This document shows, piece by piece, positions 714 to 58,877 of a stretch of DNA of 64,000 bases. The translations under genes and the position numbers were made by a program. How positions within the stretch are numbered: the first letter of the stretch is position 1; every line of letters starts with the position of its first letter. The DNA is from Candidatus Nomurabacteria bacterium. GTDB lineage: Bacteria > Patescibacteriota > Minisyncoccia > Phycocordibacterales > UBA918. The notes below the pieces were generated by a model that did no database searches, was not told the DNA's origin, and saw only the letters and a list, made by a program, of their open reading frames with translations. The stretch covers positions 21,293 to 85,292 of the forward strand of contig JACKGE010000002.1 in the NCBI GenBank assembly GCA_020632155.1. The letters are read 5' to 3'.

Positions 714-950
714 CTAAGATGATCCTCACCTCGCCCTAGGGCAGGGGCGAGGCTAACGGATCGACGGGCTTTCAATACAGACTTGATTGAGGCGTAAACC
801 TTTTTGATCCTCACCATTTTCTAGGAAAAAGAAAATGGTTCGCGGATCGACCAAAAATATAGGACCTTTTGATTACTGATCGTTCAATAGTTGGACTAAG
901 TGATCCTCATCTCGCCCTAGGAGAGGGGCGAGACTAACGGATCGACCTAA
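714..950. repeat. Three tandem copies (721-765, 806-851, 902-946) of a ~45-nt motif: GATCCTCAYC / 7-bp stem / TAGG-containing loop / stem complement / CGGATCGAC
   Basis: Read directly from the sequence. Flanks are conserved. The inner 7-bp stem differs between copies (ctcgccc/gggcgag versus cattttc/gaaaatg) but stays complementary in each. Confidence 0.7.
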
Positions 951-981
951 TTCATAGTCGCCGATGGCTCGTTGAATTAGG

Positions 982-1947
982 TCACATCCAGCGCTTGTAC
1001 TTGAAAAACGCAAAAAAGCCAATCGATACCACCAGCATGATCCCAAGAATAATCCAAAAATCGTTTCGGTGACCAAGTATCGGTGTGGTGGTCGTGTTCA
1101 TGCCGAACATTGAAGTGAAAAGGGTGAGCGGGAAGGTAATAAAAGCCATAATGGTAAGTATCTTCATCACCTCGTTTTGTTTGGTCGATAAGAGGGCGTC
1201 GTTAGTGTCACGTAGGTCCTGCAAGGTACTTGAGAGAGCCAGCACCCGGCGAGACACTTGCTCGTACACTTGCTTAATCTCATGCACAGAGCCACTGTAG
1301 GTCTTACCAAACGAATGAACAACATCAGCCTCCAGAGTCTCTAGAACATCTTCGTGAGCGGTAATGCTATGTCGAAACGCAATTAGGCGCCGGCTCACCT
1401 TTGATATCTCAAAGAGCATCTCTTTTTCATTATCTTCAAAGATATTTTCTTCGATATCTTGCATCTTAGTCTCTAAGTAGTCGAGCTTTAGGTGCAGACC
1501 CTTGTAGATGTACAAAAGCATGACAATAAGTAGACGACCACCATTCATTTTAGCGGCAGTACCATTATCAAGAGTACTTAAAACCTCAAACTCTTTGGCA
1601 AAGCGATGTAAGACCTCTATTTCTTCAAAGCGAATGGTAATGAGGTGGCTCTTGGTGGCAATAAACTTAATTTCGTGGGGGTGGTTGATGTCGGTGCGTT
1701 TTACGACCGGAAAATCAAGGGTTATTTTGAACGCATTTTTAAGCGAAGTAGCTTCAGTATGTGGAGTCATACTGGTAAGATCGGTTGTGAATTCAGGTGG
1801 CAGGCTGCACTCAGCTGCGATCTCGCGTATTTCGTCCGGAGTGGGATTAAGGACATCAAGCCATACCACCTGCTTCTGCTTGTAACGTTCTACCATCACT
1901 ATGTATGATAGCATGCTGTTTTTTGGCAACGGCTGGCACGTGTGCAA
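982..1947 (-). CDS. corA: CorA-family Mg2+/Co2+ transporter
   Basis: C-terminal GMN motif (MFGMN) followed by two TM helices, at a CorA-like length. An alternative start at M12 (about 1914) would avoid overlap with the divergent ctpA. Confidence 0.8.
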   Translation of the reverse strand: MHTCQPLPKNSMLSYIVMVERYKQKQVVWLDVLNPTPDEIREIAAECSLPPEFTTDLTSMTPHTEATSLKNAFKITLDFPVVKRTDINHPHEIKFIATKSHLITIRFEEIEVLHRFAKEFEVLSTLDNGTAAKMNGGRLLIVMLLYIYKGLHLKLDYLETKMQDIEENIFEDNEKEMLFEISKVSRRLIAFRHSITAHEDVLETLEADVVHSFGKTYSGSVHEIKQVYEQVSRRVLALSSTLQDLRDTNDALLSTKQNEVMKILTIMAFITFPLTLFTSMFGMNTTTTPILGHRNDFWIILGIMLVVSIGFFAFFKYKRWM

Positions 1948-11949: not shown

Positions 11950-12474
11950 ATGCTAATTTGCACATATTCATCTCACAGAGGTTATACTAGGCATATTATG
12001 GCTGATACACAAACAGGGCAGGGGTACTGGATTATGAAAAGCGAACCAAGCTGCTACTCTATTGATGACCTCAAGCGAGACAAAAAGACCATGTGGGATG
12101 GGGTGCGGAACTATCAAGTACGCAATATGATGCGTGACCAGATGCAGGCAGGGGACTTGGCGCTCTTTTACCACTCGAGTACCAAAGAGGTGGGGGTAGT
12201 GGGTGTTATGGAAATAGTGGGGAAGGCGTATCCGGACCCCACTCAGTTTGACCCAAAAAGTGACCACCCAGACCCGACCTCAGACCCAAAGAGCCCACGC
12301 TGGCTGTGTGTTGATGTGGCGTTTAAACAGAAGTTTCCGCAGGTAGTTTCATTAGAGCTGTTAAAAGAAAGCAAACCGTTACAACAGCTACAGATTCTAA
12401 AGCGGGGAAATCGATTATCAGTCACCCCAGTCACCAAAAATGAGTTCGAGTGCATTCTAAAGATGGCAGTATAG
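11950..12474 (+). CDS. EVE (PUA-like) domain protein
   Basis: YWIMKSEPSCYSIDDL...WDGVRNYQVRNMMRDQMQAGDLALFYHS EVE signature. The start is probably at 11998 (MADTQ). Confidence 0.8.
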   Translation: MLICTYSSHRGYTRHIMADTQTGQGYWIMKSEPSCYSIDDLKRDKKTMWDGVRNYQVRNMMRDQMQAGDLALFYHSSTKEVGVVGVMEIVGKAYPDPTQFDPKSDHPDPTSDPKSPRWLCVDVAFKQKFPQVVSLELLKESKPLQQLQILKRGNRLSVTPVTKNEFECILKMAV

Positions 12475-12477
12475 ACT

Positions 12478-13269
12478 ATGAAAATAGGTTTTTTTGATTC
12501 CGGTTTGGGCGGTATCGTCATTATGAAAGCGGTTGCAGCCGCCTTACCGCAGTATGACTATGAGTTTTATGGTGACACCTTAAACCTACCGTTTGGTGAT
12601 AAAACCGAGGAAGAAATATTCAAACTTACTAAAGCCGGCATGGAAGCACTTTTTGCTAAAGATTGTCTTATTAATATTGTGGCATGTAACACCTCATCTG
12701 CAGAATCAATGCGCAAACTCCAAGACACATTCTTGCCAGCCGGGTACCCTGATAGGCGTATTTTGGGAGTCATCATTCCGGCAGTAGAGGAGCTTATCGA
12801 CAAACAAGCCAAGAAGGTTATTTTGCTCGCCACTAAACGTACGATCGAGTCTGGTAAGTATGAACGTGAGCTCAAAAATCGACATCATGAGAAGGTAGAA
12901 CTCTATGGAGTTGCCACGCCGGCCCTTGTGCCACTGATTGAAGCAGGAAATATTGAAACGGCCACAAAAGAAGCAGCAAGAGTACTTTTGGACCTGATGG
13001 CCTCAGTAGGGGAGGTAGATAGTGTGGTTTTGGGATGCACCCACTACACGCTTTTGCGCCCAGCCCTTCAGCAGGCTTTCCCTGAAGTGACATTTGTCTC
13101 ACAAGACGAGTTTGTGCCGCATAAGCTAGAGGCTTACCTTACAGCTCATCCGGAGCATGAACAAAGACTCAGTCGGGGAGGGACGCGAAATATACAACTG
13201 ACTCAAGACAGACAAGATTATGATCAGATCATTGCCGAACTTCTAGGAGGGGTTTATTTACCGCAGTAG
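12478..13269 (+). CDS. murI: Glutamate racemase
   Basis: FDSGLGGIV and VACNTSSA motifs. Confidence 0.9.
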   Translation: MKIGFFDSGLGGIVIMKAVAAALPQYDYEFYGDTLNLPFGDKTEEEIFKLTKAGMEALFAKDCLINIVACNTSSAESMRKLQDTFLPAGYPDRRILGVIIPAVEELIDKQAKKVILLATKRTIESGKYERELKNRHHEKVELYGVATPALVPLIEAGNIETATKEAARVLLDLMASVGEVDSVVLGCTHYTLLRPALQQAFPEVTFVSQDEFVPHKLEAYLTAHPEHEQRLSRGGTRNIQLTQDRQDYDQIIAELLGGVYLPQ

Positions 13270-13288
13270 GGCGCTGTTCCCTAAAATA

Positions 13289-13324
13289 GTATAAGAGTCG
13301 CACCACTAGGGCACTTCCTTATAC
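13289..13324. repeat. Hairpin gtataag...cttatac; its 5' arm gtataagagtcgcac recurs as a direct repeat at 13352-13367
   Basis: Direct inspection of the sequence. Confidence 0.5.
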
Positions 13325-13371
13325 CTAATTCGAGCTAGACGCTCTCATAAGGTATAAGAGTCGCACAATAT

Positions 13372-13420
13372 ATCTTTTGCGAAGTATAAATAATGCATTT
13401 ATTTATACTTCGCAAAAGAT
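13372..13420. repeat. Perfect 22-bp inverted repeat with a 5-nt spacer (atcttttgcgaagtataaataa-tgcat-ttatttatacttcgcaaaagat)
   Basis: I checked every base pair of the arms: 22/22 complementary. Confidence 0.9.
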
Positions 13421-13423
13421 GAC

Positions 13424-13468
13424 GCCATTTCGCGACCCCTAGGCTTAGGGTCGCGAAATGGCTTTTTA
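13424..13468. terminator. Strong terminator-like hairpin with a 15-bp perfect stem (gccatttcgcgaccc / gggtcgcgaaatggc), a cctaggcttag loop and a T run
   Basis: Direct inspection; A and T runs on both sides. Confidence 0.7.
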
Positions 13469-13910
13469 AGACAGTAAATAATGTGTTGCAAACAGAGATA
13501 TTGATATTGTACGATGAGTGCCTGCCAATGCTCACGTCGTACAACGCTCTTTATACAAAACAGTATCTACGGTTGTTTCAGATCACATTTAAATAATTTT
13601 TTTCAGAGTTTATAAACACTGAGTTTGTAAACCTTAAATTTTGACGTCACAGAATCGATTCTAAGGCCTTCGAGTGTAGCTGCGCGATACAGTACTCATG
13701 TCGTTAGGTTTTACTAATGAAGAATTACTTCGCGTGAGTTCGGATTTGATTGCTGACTTAGCTCATCTGAATATCAGACAGTCATTCTTTCTAGCTCGTG
13801 TACATGCTGTACAGGTGGCTAACTTTTTGTTAACACTTTGCTGTGCACGTTGTACTTGAATACTAAAAAGCCTGATCGTTTGATCAAGCGTCGCAAAATA
13901 TTCAGTTTTT

Positions 13911-14110
13911 TGTGTCGTACTGCCAAACTTTTCTTCTTACAGAAACTGTACACCTTGTCGATATTTTACTTCAAGTATTCCTAAAATATCGGGCAAGGTC
14001 TTGTGTCGTGCTCCCAGACTTTTCTTCTTACAGAAACTGTTCAGGTTGTCAGATTTTCTGTTCGCATTGCTCAAGAAAATCTAGGCAACCTCTTGCGAAG
14101 GTCTCCCAGA
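13911..14110. repeat. Tandem ~91-bp units: two good copies (13911-13990, 14002-14080) plus a degenerate third. Each has a ~45-nt conserved segment followed by a 9-10 bp hairpin whose stem sequence differs between copies.
   Basis: Conserved segments tgtgtcgtactgccaaacttttcttcttacagaaactgtacaccttgtc versus tgtgtcgtgctcccagacttttcttcttacagaaactgttcaggttgtc. Following hairpins cgatatttta/taaaatatcg versus agattttct/agaaaatct. Confidence 0.75.
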
Positions 14111-14121
14111 CCTTCTCACCC

Positions 14122-14144
14122 AAAAGCCCGCTGAGCGGGCTTTT
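14122..14144. terminator. Intrinsic terminator hairpin (aaaagcccg-ctga-gcgggctttt), probably for the minus-strand M23 peptidase gene
   Basis: GC stem flanked by A and T runs, about 130 nt downstream of the 14275 stop. Confidence 0.65.
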
Positions 14145-14274
14145 GTGTGGGTAAGTTCCTACGATGCACTGCATCGCACTTACATGATAGCAAAATTTTG
14201 ACTTCTCCCCTGCTCTATCCACGGGTTTATCCCCAGAATCTTAAGCAATAACACATTAATTTATAATGTCAATC

Positions 14275-15576
14275 TTAGCGTGGAGGCAGATAATCAAGTG
14301 GGTTAAGGTACCCCTCGATCGCAGAAAATGGCGAATACGCAGCGCCACAACCAGTAACTGCCTTGAATTCACTAAATTTTTTGACTTGCACTGCTTCACT
14401 TACGTAGAGTGTGTAGTGGAGGTGTGGTCCCGTAGAGTAGCCCGTGTTACCACTGTATGCCACCACGTCCCCAGTGTTTACTTTTTGCCCAGGGCTGACT
14501 GCGATGTGACTAAGGTGCGCAAAAAGAGTCGACAGACCATTTGGGTGGTCTATAAGTATCCATTTACCCCACGAGTAACAACCAGGGACAGCATCAGTGT
14601 TGCCGGTAGCACGAATGGTGCCGGTCAGCGGCGCGTAGACCTTAGTACCAACCGGTGTACCGAGATCTATTCCGTTGTGTTTGCTGCCATTGTACGCGCC
14701 AGAAAGAGCAAACTTTGTATACCCAAAGTATTGTGTGATGACAACGTTATCAAGCGGCCAACGAAAGACAGCTGTACCCGGAGTTGGAATCTTGTTTGGA
14801 TCGAGAATGAATTGAAGTTGTGACTCAATGTCCTGCACTTCCTTGATAAGTTGCTCACGCGCCGCCTTACGCTCAGCGAGCATTGCTTGGTACTCAGCCT
14901 CCTCATTGCGGGTTTCAGTAAGTAATTGATCTTTTTCTGCCTTATTATTCTCAAGTACCGCGTGTTGACCTGAGTACTGTGCCTTAAGGTCAACGAGAGC
15001 GTCACGTTCGTCAGTTTCTTGCTTCTTTTTTCCGCCCAATTCTTCACGTAACGTTTGTAAAGCATCTACTTGCTCCGACATGCTGTTGCGCACTGTCTCT
15101 AAACTATCAACTTCATCCCAGAACTCTGCCAAGTTATCTTTACTGAGCAGTATCTCAACAAACGAATCGTTGTCACTTGAATAGAGACGGCGAAGTATCT
15201 CGCTAATCGCTTGTTCGTTTTTGGCAATACTTCGCTCTGTATTGCTGATCTCAAGTGTTAGTTTGTTGATTTCAAGGTCGGTGCTACTGATCTTATTTTG
15301 CGTGTAATCAATATCCGCTAACACTTTTTTTCGTTCAAGATTAAGACGGTAGATAGCGTCTTGTAGAGTCTTTTTTTCTGCCCCAACTTCACCAAGCGCA
15401 CTCTCAAACTCTTTGATCTCTTGTTCGATCTGGTCTAACCGCTCGTTTTTTTCGTTGATCTGATTTTGTAGTTTGGTTATCTCGGCGCTTTGTGCTGACA
15501 CAAAAGAAGGGCCGACTGTAAGCATCGGAAAAATCAAAAGCCCTAATATAAAAGCCGTGAGACGTTGTACTCTCAT
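14275..15576 (-). CDS. M23-family peptidase with a long N-terminal coiled coil (EnvC/LytM-like murein hydrolase activator)
   Basis: Signal peptide, extended coiled coil, then HNGIDLGTPVGTKVYA ... GNTGYSTGPHLHY M23 motifs. Confidence 0.8.
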   Translation of the reverse strand: MRVQRLTAFILGLLIFPMLTVGPSFVSAQSAEITKLQNQINEKNERLDQIEQEIKEFESALGEVGAEKKTLQDAIYRLNLERKKVLADIDYTQNKISSTDLEINKLTLEISNTERSIAKNEQAISEILRRLYSSDNDSFVEILLSKDNLAEFWDEVDSLETVRNSMSEQVDALQTLREELGGKKKQETDERDALVDLKAQYSGQHAVLENNKAEKDQLLTETRNEEAEYQAMLAERKAAREQLIKEVQDIESQLQFILDPNKIPTPGTAVFRWPLDNVVITQYFGYTKFALSGAYNGSKHNGIDLGTPVGTKVYAPLTGTIRATGNTDAVPGCYSWGKWILIDHPNGLSTLFAHLSHIAVSPGQKVNTGDVVAYSGNTGYSTGPHLHYTLYVSEAVQVKKFSEFKAVTGCGAAYSPFSAIEGYLNPLDYLPPR

Positions 15577-17051
15577 TACCCTGCTATTTTAGCACAGGCT
15601 GTAGCTACTCGTTTTTGCGTTTCCTCCGGTCCGAGGATATAGGCGCACATAAAGGGGTCTGGGGAGCGTTCTTTGCCAGAAAGCGCGACCCGAAGAGGCC
15701 ACAGCACTTCCCCTCTGCCGATTTCCTCAGCATAACCCCAGAGGGCGTTTTTGACTGCTTCTGGACTAGAAAAATCAGTAGTTTCAAGTAGGCCCAGTAC
15801 GTGTTGTAACCGTGACTTAGCTGCGTGTACTGAGTCATCATTTTTCCACTTGAGTAACTCCGGGTCGTATGATGGTTCCTTAAATAACCAATCAAACTCC
15901 CCGGCTGCAAAAAGTTCACGTAGCTCAACTAGATTATGAATACGTTCAATGATTACTGGCACTGCTCGTGCAAGGCGTTCGTCAGAATACTGTGGTGCGG
16001 TTGTAACGGAATCAGGCAGACCCTTGGTCACATAGGCGGTCTGCGCCTCTCTACCGAGTTGTTTTAAGTGTTCACTGTTCATCCAGCGCAACTTTTCTTC
16101 GTTGAAAGCACCACCAGAGCGCTGGATTTTTTCAAGAGAAAAAACACTAGCCAACTCATCCTCAGTAAAGAACAGTTCTTGTTCCCCGCCAGGGTTCCAA
16201 CCGATAAGCGCTAAGAAGTTACAAAGTGCTGATGGCAGATAGCCATCTTTGGCGTAATCAAGGGTGTCTTTTGCCCCGTCTCTCTTACTCAACTTCTTTT
16301 TGCCGTCTGGACCCATTATTGGAGGCAAAGTAGTAAATATAGGATGTTTTATTTCAAGCGCTTCATATAGGCTCAAAAACTTTGGTGTGCTAGATATAAA
16401 CTCATCAGTACGAAATATGTGTGTGACACCCATTTCTAGGTCGTCGATAATATGAGCAAAGTTGTAGGTCGGAAAGCCGTCGGCTTTCATAATGATAAAG
16501 TCATCAAGAGCCTCTTCGCCGGCACTAAGCTGACCACGCACCACGTCGTGCCACGTGTAGCGTTTTAGTTCGGACACTTTAAAGCGTAGTGTAGACTGAC
16601 CGTCCCACGTTTCAAATTCTTTTGGCCGGTGTTCTCGCACTAAAAAAGGACGTCCCTCTGCTTGCGCTTTATCTCGTAGTGCGTCTAGCTCCTCTGCAGA
16701 ACGTGTGTCGGGGTATGCCAATCCTTTTTCTACCAGTCGCTCGGCGTATGATTTGTAGGTCGCTAATCGCTCAGATTGCAAACAGCTGCCGAAATCAGGG
16801 CTTGGTTTGTCGGGTCCGTATTCCCAACTTATTCCAAGCCATGAAAGAGAGCGCATTATCTGCTCGATAGAACCGGCTACCTCCCTTTTCTTGTCGGTAT
16901 CTTCGATGCGTAGAATAAACTGCCCACCATTCTTTTTAGCCCACAAATACGCAAACAGAGCGGTCCGTACACCGCCGATATGTAGAAACCCTGTCGGTGA
17001 CGGGGCAAAACGTGTGACAACTTTATTACTCATGTTCTCTTCCAATGCCAA
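15576..17051 (-). CDS. gltX: Glutamyl-tRNA synthetase
   Basis: FAPSPTGFLHIGGVRTALF (HIGH) and KLSKR (KMSKS) motifs. Confidence 0.9.
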   Translation of the reverse strand: MALEENMSNKVVTRFAPSPTGFLHIGGVRTALFAYLWAKKNGGQFILRIEDTDKKREVAGSIEQIMRSLSWLGISWEYGPDKPSPDFGSCLQSERLATYKSYAERLVEKGLAYPDTRSAEELDALRDKAQAEGRPFLVREHRPKEFETWDGQSTLRFKVSELKRYTWHDVVRGQLSAGEEALDDFIIMKADGFPTYNFAHIIDDLEMGVTHIFRTDEFISSTPKFLSLYEALEIKHPIFTTLPPIMGPDGKKKLSKRDGAKDTLDYAKDGYLPSALCNFLALIGWNPGGEQELFFTEDELASVFSLEKIQRSGGAFNEEKLRWMNSEHLKQLGREAQTAYVTKGLPDSVTTAPQYSDERLARAVPVIIERIHNLVELRELFAAGEFDWLFKEPSYDPELLKWKNDDSVHAAKSRLQHVLGLLETTDFSSPEAVKNALWGYAEEIGRGEVLWPLRVALSGKERSPDPFMCAYILGPEETQKRVATACAKIAG

Positions 17052-56102: not shown

Positions 56103-58877
56103 CTAATCACTGGTGATGATGTTAAGAATGCGGCCCGGTACGTAAATGACTTTTCCAATGTTTTTATCAACTAAATACTTTTGGATGGAAGATTGTCCCT
56201 TGGCAGCAAGCAGCGCCTCTTCTTCACTAACATCAGGGGCAAGTTCGATAGCGCCACGCATTTTGCCATTTACTTGAACACCAATGGTGACCACGTCATC
56301 AATGGCCAGACTCGGGTCAGCAACTGGGAACTCTTCTAAGTGGACTGAGTTTGTCTTTCCTGCTTCGTGCCACAGTTCTTCAGTAAGGTGGGGCGCAAAC
56401 GGGGCGAGTGACTTAAGGAACATCTCGTAACTTTTTTTTGCAAGACCTTGTTTTTCTACTAAGTTCACAAACTGCATCATGGCACTAATCGCGGTATTGA
56501 ACTTGTACAGCCGTATGTCTGTGCGTAGTTTAAGAATGGTTTTATGTAGAGCTTTAGTTACTTCACTGTTTTCTGTTTCAACAAAATGTTCATGAAGGCC
56601 GTTAACACGCTCTAAAAAGCGACGAATGCCGGCAATGCCACCCATGTCCCACGGGTAGTTAGCCACCTCGCCGTACGGACCCATAAACGCAAGGTACATT
56701 TTTACGCTATCGGCACCCACTCTACTCACCTGCTCATCAGGATCAATGACGTTGCCTTTACTTTTACTCATCTTGTTTCCGTCTGGCCCTAGGATGAGTC
56801 CGCGATTGATACGCTTCGCGTATGGCTCATCGTCAACAACAAGACCAAGGTCAAACAGTGCTTTCTGCCAAAATCGAGAGTACAACAGGTGCATGGTTGT
56901 GTGTTCTGCTCCGCCAAAGTAGATGTCGATCGGCATCCATTTTTTTTGCTGCTCAAGTGCAGACAGTGCGTCAGTGTTCTCGTTATCAATGTAGCGCAAA
57001 AAATACCACGATGAGTCTACAAACGTATCGAGTGTCTCCACTTCTGGTGTCCAGCCAGCACCGAATAACTTTTCAGTACGCTCTTTTAGTTCTTTGCTTT
57101 TAGCCAGCGGAGCTTCTCCGGTTGGCTTAAAATCAACATCACTTGGCAACGTCCACGGCAGGTGTTCTTTTGGCACAGCGTGCGGCTTCCCTTCTGGATC
57201 GTAAACGATTGGAATCGGCACACCCCAGTACCGTTGTCGTCCTACCGACCAGTCGCGTAAGCGGTACGTGCTCGTCATACGGCCACCGACTTTTTTCACA
57301 ATAGCCTCTTTGGCATCTTCTGAGCTCATGCCGTCAAATTCTTCGGAGTTGTGTAATACACCGAGATCTGTATTAAAAGCCTTCTTTCCATGTAACGCCT
57401 CAAGGAGAACTCGAAGAGAGTCTGCCAAGTTATCTCTTTCAAGTAATTCTTCAATTGTTAATTCGAGAACAGCCTCACCTTCGTGCAATACGTAGTTACT
57501 TTGAATATCACTAAAATGCGTCGCTGAGATATAGCAGTCTGACTTTACTGAAGGATATGTATATGAACCGACGGCATCATATCCACGCAAATCAATCTCA
57601 AGTTCTTCGTTAATCTCTCTGACTACTGCACTTAGGACATCCTCGTCATTCTCAATTGCACCACCAAAAAGACCGATCTTCCCAGAATTTGTTTTTGCAT
57701 CTAAGTCTCGTAACTGCCAGAGAAATGTTCCAGGCTTGTCTTTTACTTCAAGTAACGCACCTGAGTGTGTAATTTTCTGAGGAGCAACAACTGACTTGAT
57801 CGCAATTCCGTATTTTTGTGCAAACGTAAAGTCTCGTTCATCGTGCGCTGGAACTGCCATAATGGCGCCAGTGCCATAAGACGCAAGTACATAGTCAGCA
57901 ATAAATACTGGTATTTCTTCATTGTTGGCTGGATTTGTAGCTGTGATACCTTCAAGCCGTACACCTGTTTTCTCCTTAGTGGCATCAAGTCGGTCTTGTT
58001 CGTTTTTTTGTGTACTTAGTACGATATATCGTACTACTTCGTCCCAGTTTTGTATCTGTTTCTTGTTCTTTTCCAAAAGTGGGTGCTCTGGCGCTAAGAC
58101 CATATAGGTAGCGCCAAATAGTGTGTCTGGACGCGTGGTAAAGACTGTCACGTTGTCACCAGTTGATAGTTTGAAGTCGATCTCAGCTCCTTTAGAGCGG
58201 CCGATCCACCTCCGCTGTGCTTCTTTGATGTGTTCTGGCCAATCAACCTTTTCGAGATCGTCTACCAAACGATCAGCGTAATTAGTGATACGGAGCATCC
58301 ACTGCGGCATTTCTTTTTTCTCAATAACGTCACCACTCCGTTCACAGGTACCGTCAGCCAAAACTTGTTCATTAGCAATAACGGTGTTACACCCTGGGCA
58401 CCAGTTGACTATACCTTTGCCACGAAACGCTATATCGTTTTCAAAAAACTGCGTAAACATCCACTGTGTCCATTTATAGTAGTCTTCATCGGTAGAACTC
58501 GTAGTTTTGTCCCACGAAAAGGCATTGCCCATGCTCTTAAGTTGGTTCTTCATGTGAGCAATATTGCTCTCGGTCCACGTCCGTGGGTCAGTATCGCGCT
58601 TAATGGCCGCATTTTCGGCTGGTAGACCGAATGCATCAAAACCCATTGGATACAAAACTTGTTTTCCTTGCATGCGCTGAAAACGTACATAAATATCAGG
58701 CACGGCAAAAGCGTGCCAGTGGCCAATATGGAGGTTTCCTGAAGGATATGGCCACTCCACCAGTACGTACTCTTTTTCTTTGTTTGTATCACGCTGTCCT
58801 ACTTCGTAGAGCTTTTGTTCCTCCCAAAGTTGTTGCCATTTCTGCTCAATAGCGGCAGCGTCGAACTTTTTATGCAT
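56103..58877 (-). CDS. leuS: Leucyl-tRNA synthetase
   Basis: PYPSGNLHIGHWHAF (HIGH) and KMSKSKGN motifs; 924 aa. Confidence 0.95.
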   Translation of the reverse strand: MHKKFDAAAIEQKWQQLWEEQKLYEVGQRDTNKEKEYVLVEWPYPSGNLHIGHWHAFAVPDIYVRFQRMQGKQVLYPMGFDAFGLPAENAAIKRDTDPRTWTESNIAHMKNQLKSMGNAFSWDKTTSSTDEDYYKWTQWMFTQFFENDIAFRGKGIVNWCPGCNTVIANEQVLADGTCERSGDVIEKKEMPQWMLRITNYADRLVDDLEKVDWPEHIKEAQRRWIGRSKGAEIDFKLSTGDNVTVFTTRPDTLFGATYMVLAPEHPLLEKNKKQIQNWDEVVRYIVLSTQKNEQDRLDATKEKTGVRLEGITATNPANNEEIPVFIADYVLASYGTGAIMAVPAHDERDFTFAQKYGIAIKSVVAPQKITHSGALLEVKDKPGTFLWQLRDLDAKTNSGKIGLFGGAIENDEDVLSAVVREINEELEIDLRGYDAVGSYTYPSVKSDCYISATHFSDIQSNYVLHEGEAVLELTIEELLERDNLADSLRVLLEALHGKKAFNTDLGVLHNSEEFDGMSSEDAKEAIVKKVGGRMTSTYRLRDWSVGRQRYWGVPIPIVYDPEGKPHAVPKEHLPWTLPSDVDFKPTGEAPLAKSKELKERTEKLFGAGWTPEVETLDTFVDSSWYFLRYIDNENTDALSALEQQKKWMPIDIYFGGAEHTTMHLLYSRFWQKALFDLGLVVDDEPYAKRINRGLILGPDGNKMSKSKGNVIDPDEQVSRVGADSVKMYLAFMGPYGEVANYPWDMGGIAGIRRFLERVNGLHEHFVETENSEVTKALHKTILKLRTDIRLYKFNTAISAMMQFVNLVEKQGLAKKSYEMFLKSLAPFAPHLTEELWHEAGKTNSVHLEEFPVADPSLAIDDVVTIGVQVNGKMRGAIELAPDVSEEEALLAAKGQSSIQKYLVDKNIGKVIYVPGRILNIITSD

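Follow-up and report, generated by a model that had tools for sequence, protein, structure and literature searches.

Introduction

CPR bacteria (Patescibacteria) have small, tightly packed genomes in which repeats, mobile DNA and non-coding RNAs are hardly known, and the spacer between corA and cysS in a Candidatus Nomurabacteria contig raises the question of what three closely spaced hairpins are doing there. The stretch of DNA that was analysed, hereafter the window, is 64,000 nt long. A preliminary description of it had seen in the hairpins tandem units of about 45 nt, placed in the 5' region of cysS and the 3' region of corA, whose stems change in sequence while remaining complementary, and had read this as selection on structure rather than simple duplication. 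For this window the main message is negative, in that the hairpins are not a cysS control element; they belong to a new, uncatalogued family (not in Rfam) of what looks like a familiar kind of repeat, set in Kaiserbacteria-like CPR bacteria. Such elements could serve as markers for strain typing and genome dynamics in uncultured bacteria, and could point to an enzyme or RNA-binding protein that handles them. They also hold a caution for automated motif screens, as compensated stems in palindromic DNA repeats do not by themselves prove RNA function.

The corA-cysS Spacer and Its Neighborhood

Both flanking genes lie on the minus strand, so the mRNA is the reverse complement of the sequence in which the hairpins were first described. 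The upstream gene in the direction of transcription is corA (982-1896, minus strand; stop codon TGA at 982-984), whose product is 100% identical to P0001, a CorA family protein of Candidatus Kaiserbacteria (Pfam PF01544), the next relative being 68% identical. The 5' part of cysS occupies positions 1-662 of the minus strand, with its start codon at 660-662, and the gene then leaves the window; Pfam PF01406 was found on the same gene in the assemblies L157-L160. Bases 663-719 are the native cysS leader, homologous to the 46-nt corA-cysS spacer of the relative L153.

The genes of the window are all core genes, for aminoacyl-tRNA synthetases, ribosomal proteins, RpoA, DnaK/DnaJ/GrpE, cell-wall functions, and ScpAB. 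Genes for transposases, integrases, Y1/HUH proteins, Cas proteins and Nop-domain proteins were absent from the 64 kb, and no tRNA genes or Rfam families were found above threshold anywhere in the window. The GC skew at the locus gave a weak hint on the direction of replication.

Three Two-Stem Hairpin Units

The three units, each about 45 nt long and all on the minus strand, lie at 720-766, 805-852 and 901-947, and their flanks are exactly common to all. Read on the plus strand, as in the preliminary description, they open with TGATCCTCAYC, close with CGGATCGAC and have a loop that starts with TAGG; in these features, and in the sequences of the inner stems, sequence and folds agreed with what had been described. 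The combination of GATCCTCAYC with CGGATCGAC occurs three times and is found nowhere else in the window, and the looser pattern GATCC-N20-50-GGATC was observed three times against an expectation of 0.59, a count reached in 1 of 100 shuffles. Each unit folds into an outer 5-bp stem, an asymmetric internal loop, an inner stem of 8-10 bp and a loop of 7-8 nt.

Copy 1 (720-766) reads GATCCTCACC...CGGATCGAC at 721-765, with its outer stem at 721-725/758-762 and a GC-type inner stem at 729-736/745-752, and scored 70 bits with the covariance model R3. Copy 3 (901-947), which reads GATCCTCATC...CGGATCGAC at 902-946, is of the same type (outer stem 902-906/939-943, inner stem 910-917/926-933, loop 918-925) and scored 72 bits with this model (E about 1e-14). 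The inner stem of both is (Y)CTCGCCC/GGGCGAG(R), and the two differ by one compensated pair, C-G vs T-A. Copy 2 (805-852; sequence frame 806-851) has its outer stem at 806-810/844-848 and an AT-type inner stem, CCATTTTC/GAAAATGG, at 814-821/831-838; its internal loop is GCGAA where the other copies have GTTAG, and it scored 64.5 bits.

Fold z-scores of the units against shuffles ranged from -2.6 to -4.3 on the plus strand and from -3.8 to -5.2 on the minus strand, and the whole corA-cysS spacer had z-scores of -5.5 (RNA parameters) and -5.8 (DNA parameters). A head-to-tail tandem layout was not borne out, the start-to-start spacing being 85 and 96 nt with intervening stretches of 39 and 50 nt. 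A region of 450 nt is identical across four independent assemblies from different samples (L157-L160), which indicates that the array is real and not an assembly artefact.

A Second Module and the Bipartite Element

The units of about 45 nt are present as described, but each accounts for just half of what is repeated, namely the second module (B) of a bipartite repeat, A+B, about 85-90 nt long, whose first module, hairpin A, the preliminary description had missed. The sole complete hairpin A in the window lies at 944-983 on the minus strand, where it precedes copy 3 of B in the direction of transcription and immediately abuts it. Its stem (973-983/944-954) reads GACCTAATTCA/TGAATTAGGTC and its loop (955-972) ACGAGCCATCGGCGACTA, and the stem opens with two bases, G and A, that belong to the corA stop codon (982-984). 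With the covariance model R2 this hairpin scored 38.2 bits (E about 1e-7 to 1e-6, depending on the search), and with filters off it was the sole match below E = 0.1 in the 64 kb; it can be aligned with 14 other distinct copies.

On the mRNA strand the consensus of A is GACCUAAnnnA - AYGAGC(N3)GCGAYUA - UnnnUUAGGUC, and AYGAGC-GNA-GCGAYUA stands in its loop. In module B the 5-bp outer stem, GAUCC/GGAUC, leads through the internal loop GUUAG/UGA to an inner stem of variable sequence, whose loop is rich in pyrimidines and ends in CCUA.

The other two copies of B in the window are preceded by less. Before copy 2 lies the 3' half of A only (849-862, minus strand; sense reading CTATATTTTTGGTC), which by direct reading of the sequences agrees in 13 of 14 bases with CTATATTTTAGGTC in the L125 copy, so that copy 2 is a 5'-truncated A+B element. 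Before copy 1 there is a weak hairpin (767-800, minus strand) in which TCAAT at 772-776 pairs with ATTGA at 786-790. From folds and visual comparison with the 3' arms of A, this may be a degenerate A module without the conserved loop, a weak assignment that model R2 did not support. With copy 3 complete, copy 2 truncated in A, and copy 1 possibly decayed in A, the array consists of three A+B elements in different states of preservation. Models R2 and R3, run with filters off, found no locus beyond the array in the 64 kb, and it is the only A+B locus in about 74 kb of this genome (the window plus 10 kb of L157).

Distribution Among Related Genomes

The search of related genomes that the preliminary description had called for showed that the units recur, and so does the covariation of their stems. 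A metagenome scan for the flanks and the TAGG loop gave 10 matches, among them five true relatives, with B beside ssb, dnaB and other genes; hairpin A stands directly before B in all five, as it does before copy 3 of the window. With model R2, 15 distinct A copies were found in about 210 kb of related loci. The B modules that follow them come in three variants, GAUCC..GGAUC, GUUCC..GGAAC and GUCC..GGAC, and in the variants with GUUCC/GGAAC or GUCC/GGAC outer stems, which occur in other genomes, there is a 3' CU bulge. All A+B copies are intergenic, with each module a hairpin, and in other Paceibacteria they occupy the ssb-rpsR and dnaB-recR spacers, sites at efp/a sigma-factor gene and at rpsF/VanY, and further sites, at a density of 2-3 copies per 12-20 kb in the relatives.

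The same spacer may be filled in one genome and empty in another. The corA-cysS spacer is 319 nt long in the window vs 46 nt without the element in the nearest relative, L153, where it corresponds by homology to the final stretch of the spacer in the window and where the gene order, corA-cysS-dnaB-recR, is the same as in the window genome; in L154 an additional gene lies between corA and cysS. At dnaB-recR, L128 and L154 carry the element; in L153 and in the genome of the window this spacer is empty. Among genomes with an SSB 79-89% identical to the query SSB of L125, the ssb-rpsR spacer holds A+B in the sense orientation in L121/L172-175 and in L125/L193 (L193 is the same organism as L125, with an SSB 100% identical over the aligned 84%) and in the antisense orientation in L179; it holds other sequence in L176 and is empty (21-33 nt) in L161-L170, L171 and L182. 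These differences between filled and empty sites may reflect losses of the element as well as gains.

The location in the cysS 5' and corA 3' region was thus correctly described but carries no gene specificity, as the element also occupies ssb-rpsR and dnaB-recR and is missing from L153. This bears on the idea that the hairpins are a leader specific to cysS, either a T-box-like riboswitch or a tRNA-Cys mimic bound by CysRS for autoregulation. The position upstream of cysS invites that idea, and the loop of copy 1 has UGC on the mRNA strand; however, UGC is absent from copies 2 and 3, A+B also lies beside unrelated genes, the spacer of the closest relative does without it, and there is no match to the T-box or any other leader family, all of which makes a cysS-specific leader very improbable. 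The preliminary description had already noted the mismatch to T-box architecture, and a search of both strands of 500-1100 with the T-box covariance model (stem I, specifier loop, antiterminator) gave no match at E up to 10.

Where A+B is present it sits close against the genes. The end of A is 0-2 nt from an ORF boundary in at least eight of nine contexts: its stem includes the stop codon at corA, ssb and dnaB (twice), and at efp, rpsF and rpsR the complement of the start codon directly adjoins A. Part of this placement can be put down to very short spacers tolerating insertions, but the start-codon cases cannot. Filled sites end in TGA, TAG or TAA, with the stop codon at the base of stem A; of the three empty ssb-rpsR sites examined, two end in TAA and one in TAG. 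At least seven of the nine copies with clear context are co-oriented with their flanking genes, and two intact copies, in the ssb-rpsR spacer of L179 and at 1167-1200 of L123, are antisense to both neighbors. At least three to four genomes (L171, L176 and L121/L172, the latter perhaps one organism) share the position of the rpsF/VanY copy, with conserved loops and compensated stems. In streamlined genomes, a copy conserved in position argues for some function.

The start-codon contexts bring up another reading, in which the complement of module A would serve as a portable promoter followed by a brief AU-rich leader. On that strand the conserved half of the loop reads (T/C/A)ATA(A/G)T, similar to a -10 hexamer; this sequence stands 23 nt upstream of the ATG of efp (L161, L179) and rpsF (L172) and 26 nt from that of rpsR (L179), and the efp, rpsF and rpsR contexts leave no other room for a promoter beside the gene. 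Since the hairpin has a fixed size, however, the constant spacing comes about automatically; a -35 element is not visible, and in the window, at ssb and at dnaB the hexamer would fire antisense into the upstream gene. As the window hexamer, CATAGT, also matches the consensus at only four of six positions, we regard a promoter role as improbable.

When filled and empty ssb-rpsR and corA-cysS spacers were compared for target-site duplication, their sequence divergence obscured the 3' boundary. Neither terminal inverted repeats nor target duplications were definable for the A+B element, and between its first 13 nt and the reverse complement of its last 13 nt only five positions match.

Lineages Within the Array

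The preliminary description had set its reading against simple duplication, and this holds for part of the array. Copy 2 is only 65% identical to either neighbor; it is 90% identical to the B module of L125 and 79-81% identical to copies in L121, L123 and L128, and by these identities appears to belong to another lineage. The 89% identity between copies 1 and 3 suggests a local duplication. Local duplication is seen directly in L193, where the ssb-rpsR spacer contains A, B, 36 nt and a second B that arose by a perfect direct tandem duplication of 77 nt. Together, the identities within the array and the L193 duplication indicate that arrays grow by local duplication and, apparently, by the arrival of a second lineage at an occupied site. 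The 3.6 copies seen at the end of contig L125 are an apparent assembly loop.

The sequences of the B inner stem fall into two kinds, and the switch between CAUUUUC and CUCGCCC is wholesale, with no intermediates among the copies compared. Conserved flanks and loop with variable arms give the units a superficial likeness to TIGR units, which have a fixed 36-nt period, two 9-12-nt spacers without covariation, and an adjacent Nop-domain Tas gene, and which are common in CPR bacteria (PMC12045711). As in TIGR arrays, conserved edges and middle enclose variable segments; unlike in TIGR arrays, the variable segments are perfectly complementary to each other, the period is irregular (85-96 nt), one and the same "spacer" is met again in four other genomes, units also occur singly, and there is no Tas gene, with neither Nop nor Cas genes in the 64 kb. 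A small guide-RNA array of the TIGR-Tas or CRISPR type therefore deserves almost no weight here. That the array is not a CRISPR array had been recognised from the variable middles of the units; CRISPR arrays have near-identical repeats between unique spacers of similar length and usually cas genes nearby, but these units are 65-89% identical, cas genes are absent, and the Rfam family CRISPR-DR57 gave only E = 5.2.

Covariation, Folding Strand and the Level of Pairing

The claim that complementarity is kept while the sequence changes was upheld for both modules. Across the 15 distinct copies of hairpin A, both partners change in 10 of 11 pairs, and the share of paired cells is 85%, compared with 31-46% in slid registers; none of 500 shuffles matched its covariation score. 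For the GAUCC form of hairpin B (seven distinct copies), both partners change in six of eight inner-stem pairs, and each of the 91 pair cells is Watson-Crick, G.U being absent. The 165 pair cells of hairpin A hold 139 Watson-Crick pairs and one G.U on the folding strand, along with four A.C/C.A cells, which are would-be G.U pairs on the other strand; with both kinds so rare, these counts do not discriminate the RNA strand.

The strand is given by the apex of A. There, G-A-G-C and G-C-G-A enclose the loop with two Watson-Crick pairs, which covary (G-C to A-U and C-G to U-A), above a tandem G.A/A.G, and the positions that flank the apical G.A pairs co-vary as U:U, C:C or G:C; nine copies have a second tandem G.A within the stem. 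These tandem G.A/A.G motifs are confined to the strand that reads from A to B, as the complement would give T.C/C.T mismatches, and the strand that folds is therefore the A-to-B one (minus in the window).

Whether the folded molecule is RNA or DNA decides how far the "selection on structure" of the preliminary description can be taken: structural constraint is clear, whereas selection at the level of RNA is not established, given the near-absence of G.U. As a functional structured RNA, A+B would be read from A to B in operon mRNAs or 5' leaders and could act by binding a protein, by offering RNase a processing site, or by stabilising the upstream cistron; frequent gain and loss of a useful module would then account for its patchy distribution. 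Much is consistent with this. Both helices covary strongly, beyond all 500 shuffles; single-stranded nucleotides are conserved, and the strand-specific G.A motifs are reminiscent of protein sites of the k-turn or loop-E type; the orientation of most copies agrees with that of the neighboring genes; the rpsF/VanY copy is kept with compensated stems in at least three to four genomes; and compact genomes retain little spare DNA. Against it stand the single G.U among 256 pair cells on the proposed RNA strand, the two intact copies antisense to both neighbors, close relatives with the same spacers and no element, the lack of any Rfam match, and the wholesale swap of the B inner stem. On balance we consider a functional RNA a serious but distinctly less probable alternative to a DNA-level repeat.

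The near-absence of G.U fits better with pairing at the DNA level, or with correction of palindromes by template switching, than with an evolving RNA helix. Template-switch correction of palindromes could contribute to the maintenance of DNA pairing. The loop sequence points the same way: GCGNAGC is an extraordinarily stable DNA mini-hairpin motif (PMC13037366, PMC3201870), a structural motif and not a genetic element, and the apex of hairpin A matches it exactly in eight of 15 copies (GC-GNA-GC with a GTA or GCA triloop), with a GNA triloop (GUA/GCA) in 12 of 15. By analogy this suggests folding as DNA, short of proof. The single-stranded DNA hairpin form has precedent in REP/RAYT systems and at the ends of IS200/IS605 elements (PMC3116915, PMC6006769).

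Comparison With Known Elements

The covariance-model search proposed in the preliminary description was carried out against Rfam for the window and four related loci, and no family matched; a weak match to HgcC (18.5 bits, E = 0.06) was dismissed. A k-turn in the internal loop of B was rejected because GUUAG, after a 3-nt bulge, yields A.A and G.G pairs, and hammerhead and other small ribozymes were rejected as both a three-way junction and an Rfam match are absent. Readings as a retron, a diversity-generating retroelement (DGR) or an attC site were dropped for want of their defining partners. Integron attC sites have paired R''/R' boxes (RYYYAAC ... GTTRRRY) at the ends of the folded site and lie behind cassette genes; the units here have one GTTAG(Y)C each, unpaired in the internal loop, and their neighbors are core genes.

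Searches for further copies gave only chance matches to the A and B patterns in IMG/VR viral contigs and no BLAST match to phages and plasmids. Among the matches listed for GATCCTCAYC-N18-36-CGGATCGAC in genome contigs, there were high-GC chance matches, none of them folding like the unit, and spurious ORFs that might read through the element yielded no candidates. In the literature searched on repeats and RNA motifs of Patescibacteria the element is undescribed, the relevant work being limited to TIGR-Tas.

The closest parallels are families of short intergenic repeats. Like A+B, the REP/BIME/REPIN elements associated with RAYT are short extragenic hairpin repeats in operon spacers, often placed after a stop codon, clustered in places, and better conserved in structure than in sequence; the form in which they are handled is believed to be a single-stranded DNA hairpin (PMC3116915, PMC3337134). 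Unlike them, A+B consists of two dissimilar hairpins with conserved loops, appears at low density in the roughly 74 kb of this genome that were covered, and was found without a RAYT, a conserved 5' GTAG-type tetranucleotide, or inverted REP doublets. BOX of Streptococcus pneumoniae is a modular repeat, boxA-boxB(n)-boxC, thought to be moved by an IS-type transposase through its terminal repeats. A+B is likewise modular, intergenic and non-coding with stable secondary structure, and varies in the tandem number of B (three here, two in L193, one elsewhere), but its sequence is unrelated, its phylum is another, and neither a conserved C module nor terminal repeats were seen. MITEs (Correia, ERIC, RUP) are defined by terminal inverted repeats and target-site duplications; they are co-transcribed with their neighbors and can carry promoter-like or processing signals. 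The size range, about 90-135 nt, and the variable presence among strains or species are shared with A+B, the ends of which are not inverted copies of each other. The preliminary description had named a match to a known REP or MITE family lacking structural constraint as the finding that would speak against its reading; the dispersed and variable occurrence of A+B comes close to this, but structural constraint is clearly present.

A Model for the A+B Element

The reading that we favor, at roughly even confidence, is that the A+B copies of Paceibacteria form a new repeat family, intergenic, interspersed and structure-bearing, of the REP/BIME, BOX and MITE kind. In such a model the element would enter short spacers of housekeeping operons, then be duplicated locally, and then decay. 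Pairing might be maintained at the DNA level, for instance because a single-stranded hairpin is recognised by a putative trans-acting HUH/Y1-like enzyme, possibly assisted by template-switch correction of the palindromes, and the element would have no specific role in the control of cysS. Several observations run counter to this reading: no mobilising enzyme was found, no terminal repeats are definable, and there is one locus in about 74 kb; the sense bias of most copies is as expected of an RNA element; and conserved single-stranded motifs with G.A pairs are also typical of protein-binding RNAs. As for a mobilising enzyme, no Y1 transposase was found in the window or in 480 kb of related loci, save at L182/L183. 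The Y1_Tnp gene of the relative L182 is flanked by REP-like hairpins that differ in sequence from A+B, and the L182 locus is without an A+B copy.

A bolder possibility, which we think rather unlikely, is that A+B is the recognition module of a new hairpin-guided single-stranded DNA mobility system, or else represents a new class of protein-bound structured RNA at ORF boundaries in streamlined genomes. Were it a mobility system, module A, with its GC-GNA-GC apex and tandem G.A, would be the enzyme handle and B a swappable hairpin; under either version, the mechanism would involve the near-constant position of the A end, 0-2 nt from a stop or start codon.

Under the repeat family reading, a likely side effect would be that the corA-cysS co-transcript gains about 270 nt that fold very stably, which could alter the processing or stability of the two halves of the mRNA. 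An intrinsic terminator, a GC-rich hairpin with a U tract behind it, was also considered and rejected; nothing terminator-like was found in 663-981, and no unit is followed by a T run. Canonical terminators are used elsewhere in such genomes, for example after rpsR in L121.

Tandem duplication and possible rearrangement of the repeat in relatives

The dispersed two-hairpin intergenic repeat (hairpin A followed by hairpin B) also occurs in the ssb-rpsR spacer of a related organism represented by two assemblies, where the B unit has been duplicated in tandem. A 77-nt repeat stands in 3.6 perfect copies at the end of contig L125 (7115-7395). The organism's other assembly (L193, 6390-6550) carries only about 1.6 copies, and the rpsR leader follows. 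An assembly loop probably accounts for the longer run in L125; the B unit has nevertheless genuinely been duplicated. At another locus (L123, 225-420) a tiny basic ORF (ATGGCAAAAGG...) has its start present twice, once on either side of an A+B' element; a stop codon within the A loop truncates the first copy. The arrangement resembles the scar of a duplication or insertion.

In L182 (20200-20444) a different hairpin, CTCCGAAGGGGAACCCTTCGTA, occurs as two direct copies ahead of a Y1_Tnp (IS200/RAYT-like) gene of 220 aa, and L183 has the same arrangement (14056-14194); this shows that these bacteria do possess REP/RAYT-type systems. The A+B element was absent from the 20-kb L182 locus that carries the gene.

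A free-standing HNH endonuclease gene (103 aa; L171 5932-6243, minus strand) is missing from the otherwise syntenic L161. In the relative L154 (13447-14874 and 11038-11502), dnaB was called as two ORFs (335 and 136 aa), and corA and cysS are separated by a Ham1-family gene on the opposite strand.

Sequence composition and RNA genes of the window

The tetranucleotide CTAG is under-represented across the whole window: base composition predicts about 246 occurrences and 119 were observed. All B loops nonetheless contain it. Seven GATC sites fall within positions 700-990.

Neither tRNA genes nor Rfam families at the gathering threshold were detected in the 64 kb. A weak full-length match to the archaeal RNA HgcC (887-1013, minus strand; E = 0.06, score 18.5 bits where the threshold is 50) spans hairpin A and the third B copy, and we judged this match to be a chance resemblance.

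Near positions 12000-16000 the sign of GC skew flips and gene orientation changes from mostly plus to all minus; a terminus or origin of replication may lie here. Within it, 13270-14274 has no ORFs of 100 aa or longer and contains palindromes that are very AT-rich (weak matches to the covariance model built for hairpin A at 13385-13407, GC 0.09).

The window encodes at least seven aminoacyl-tRNA synthetases (Cys, Glu/Gln, Asp/Asn/Lys-type, Trp/Tyr-type, Ala and Leu), and the leucyl-tRNA synthetase ORF (56103-58877, minus strand) includes a NUDIX-domain match at residues 378-459, beside the editing domain.
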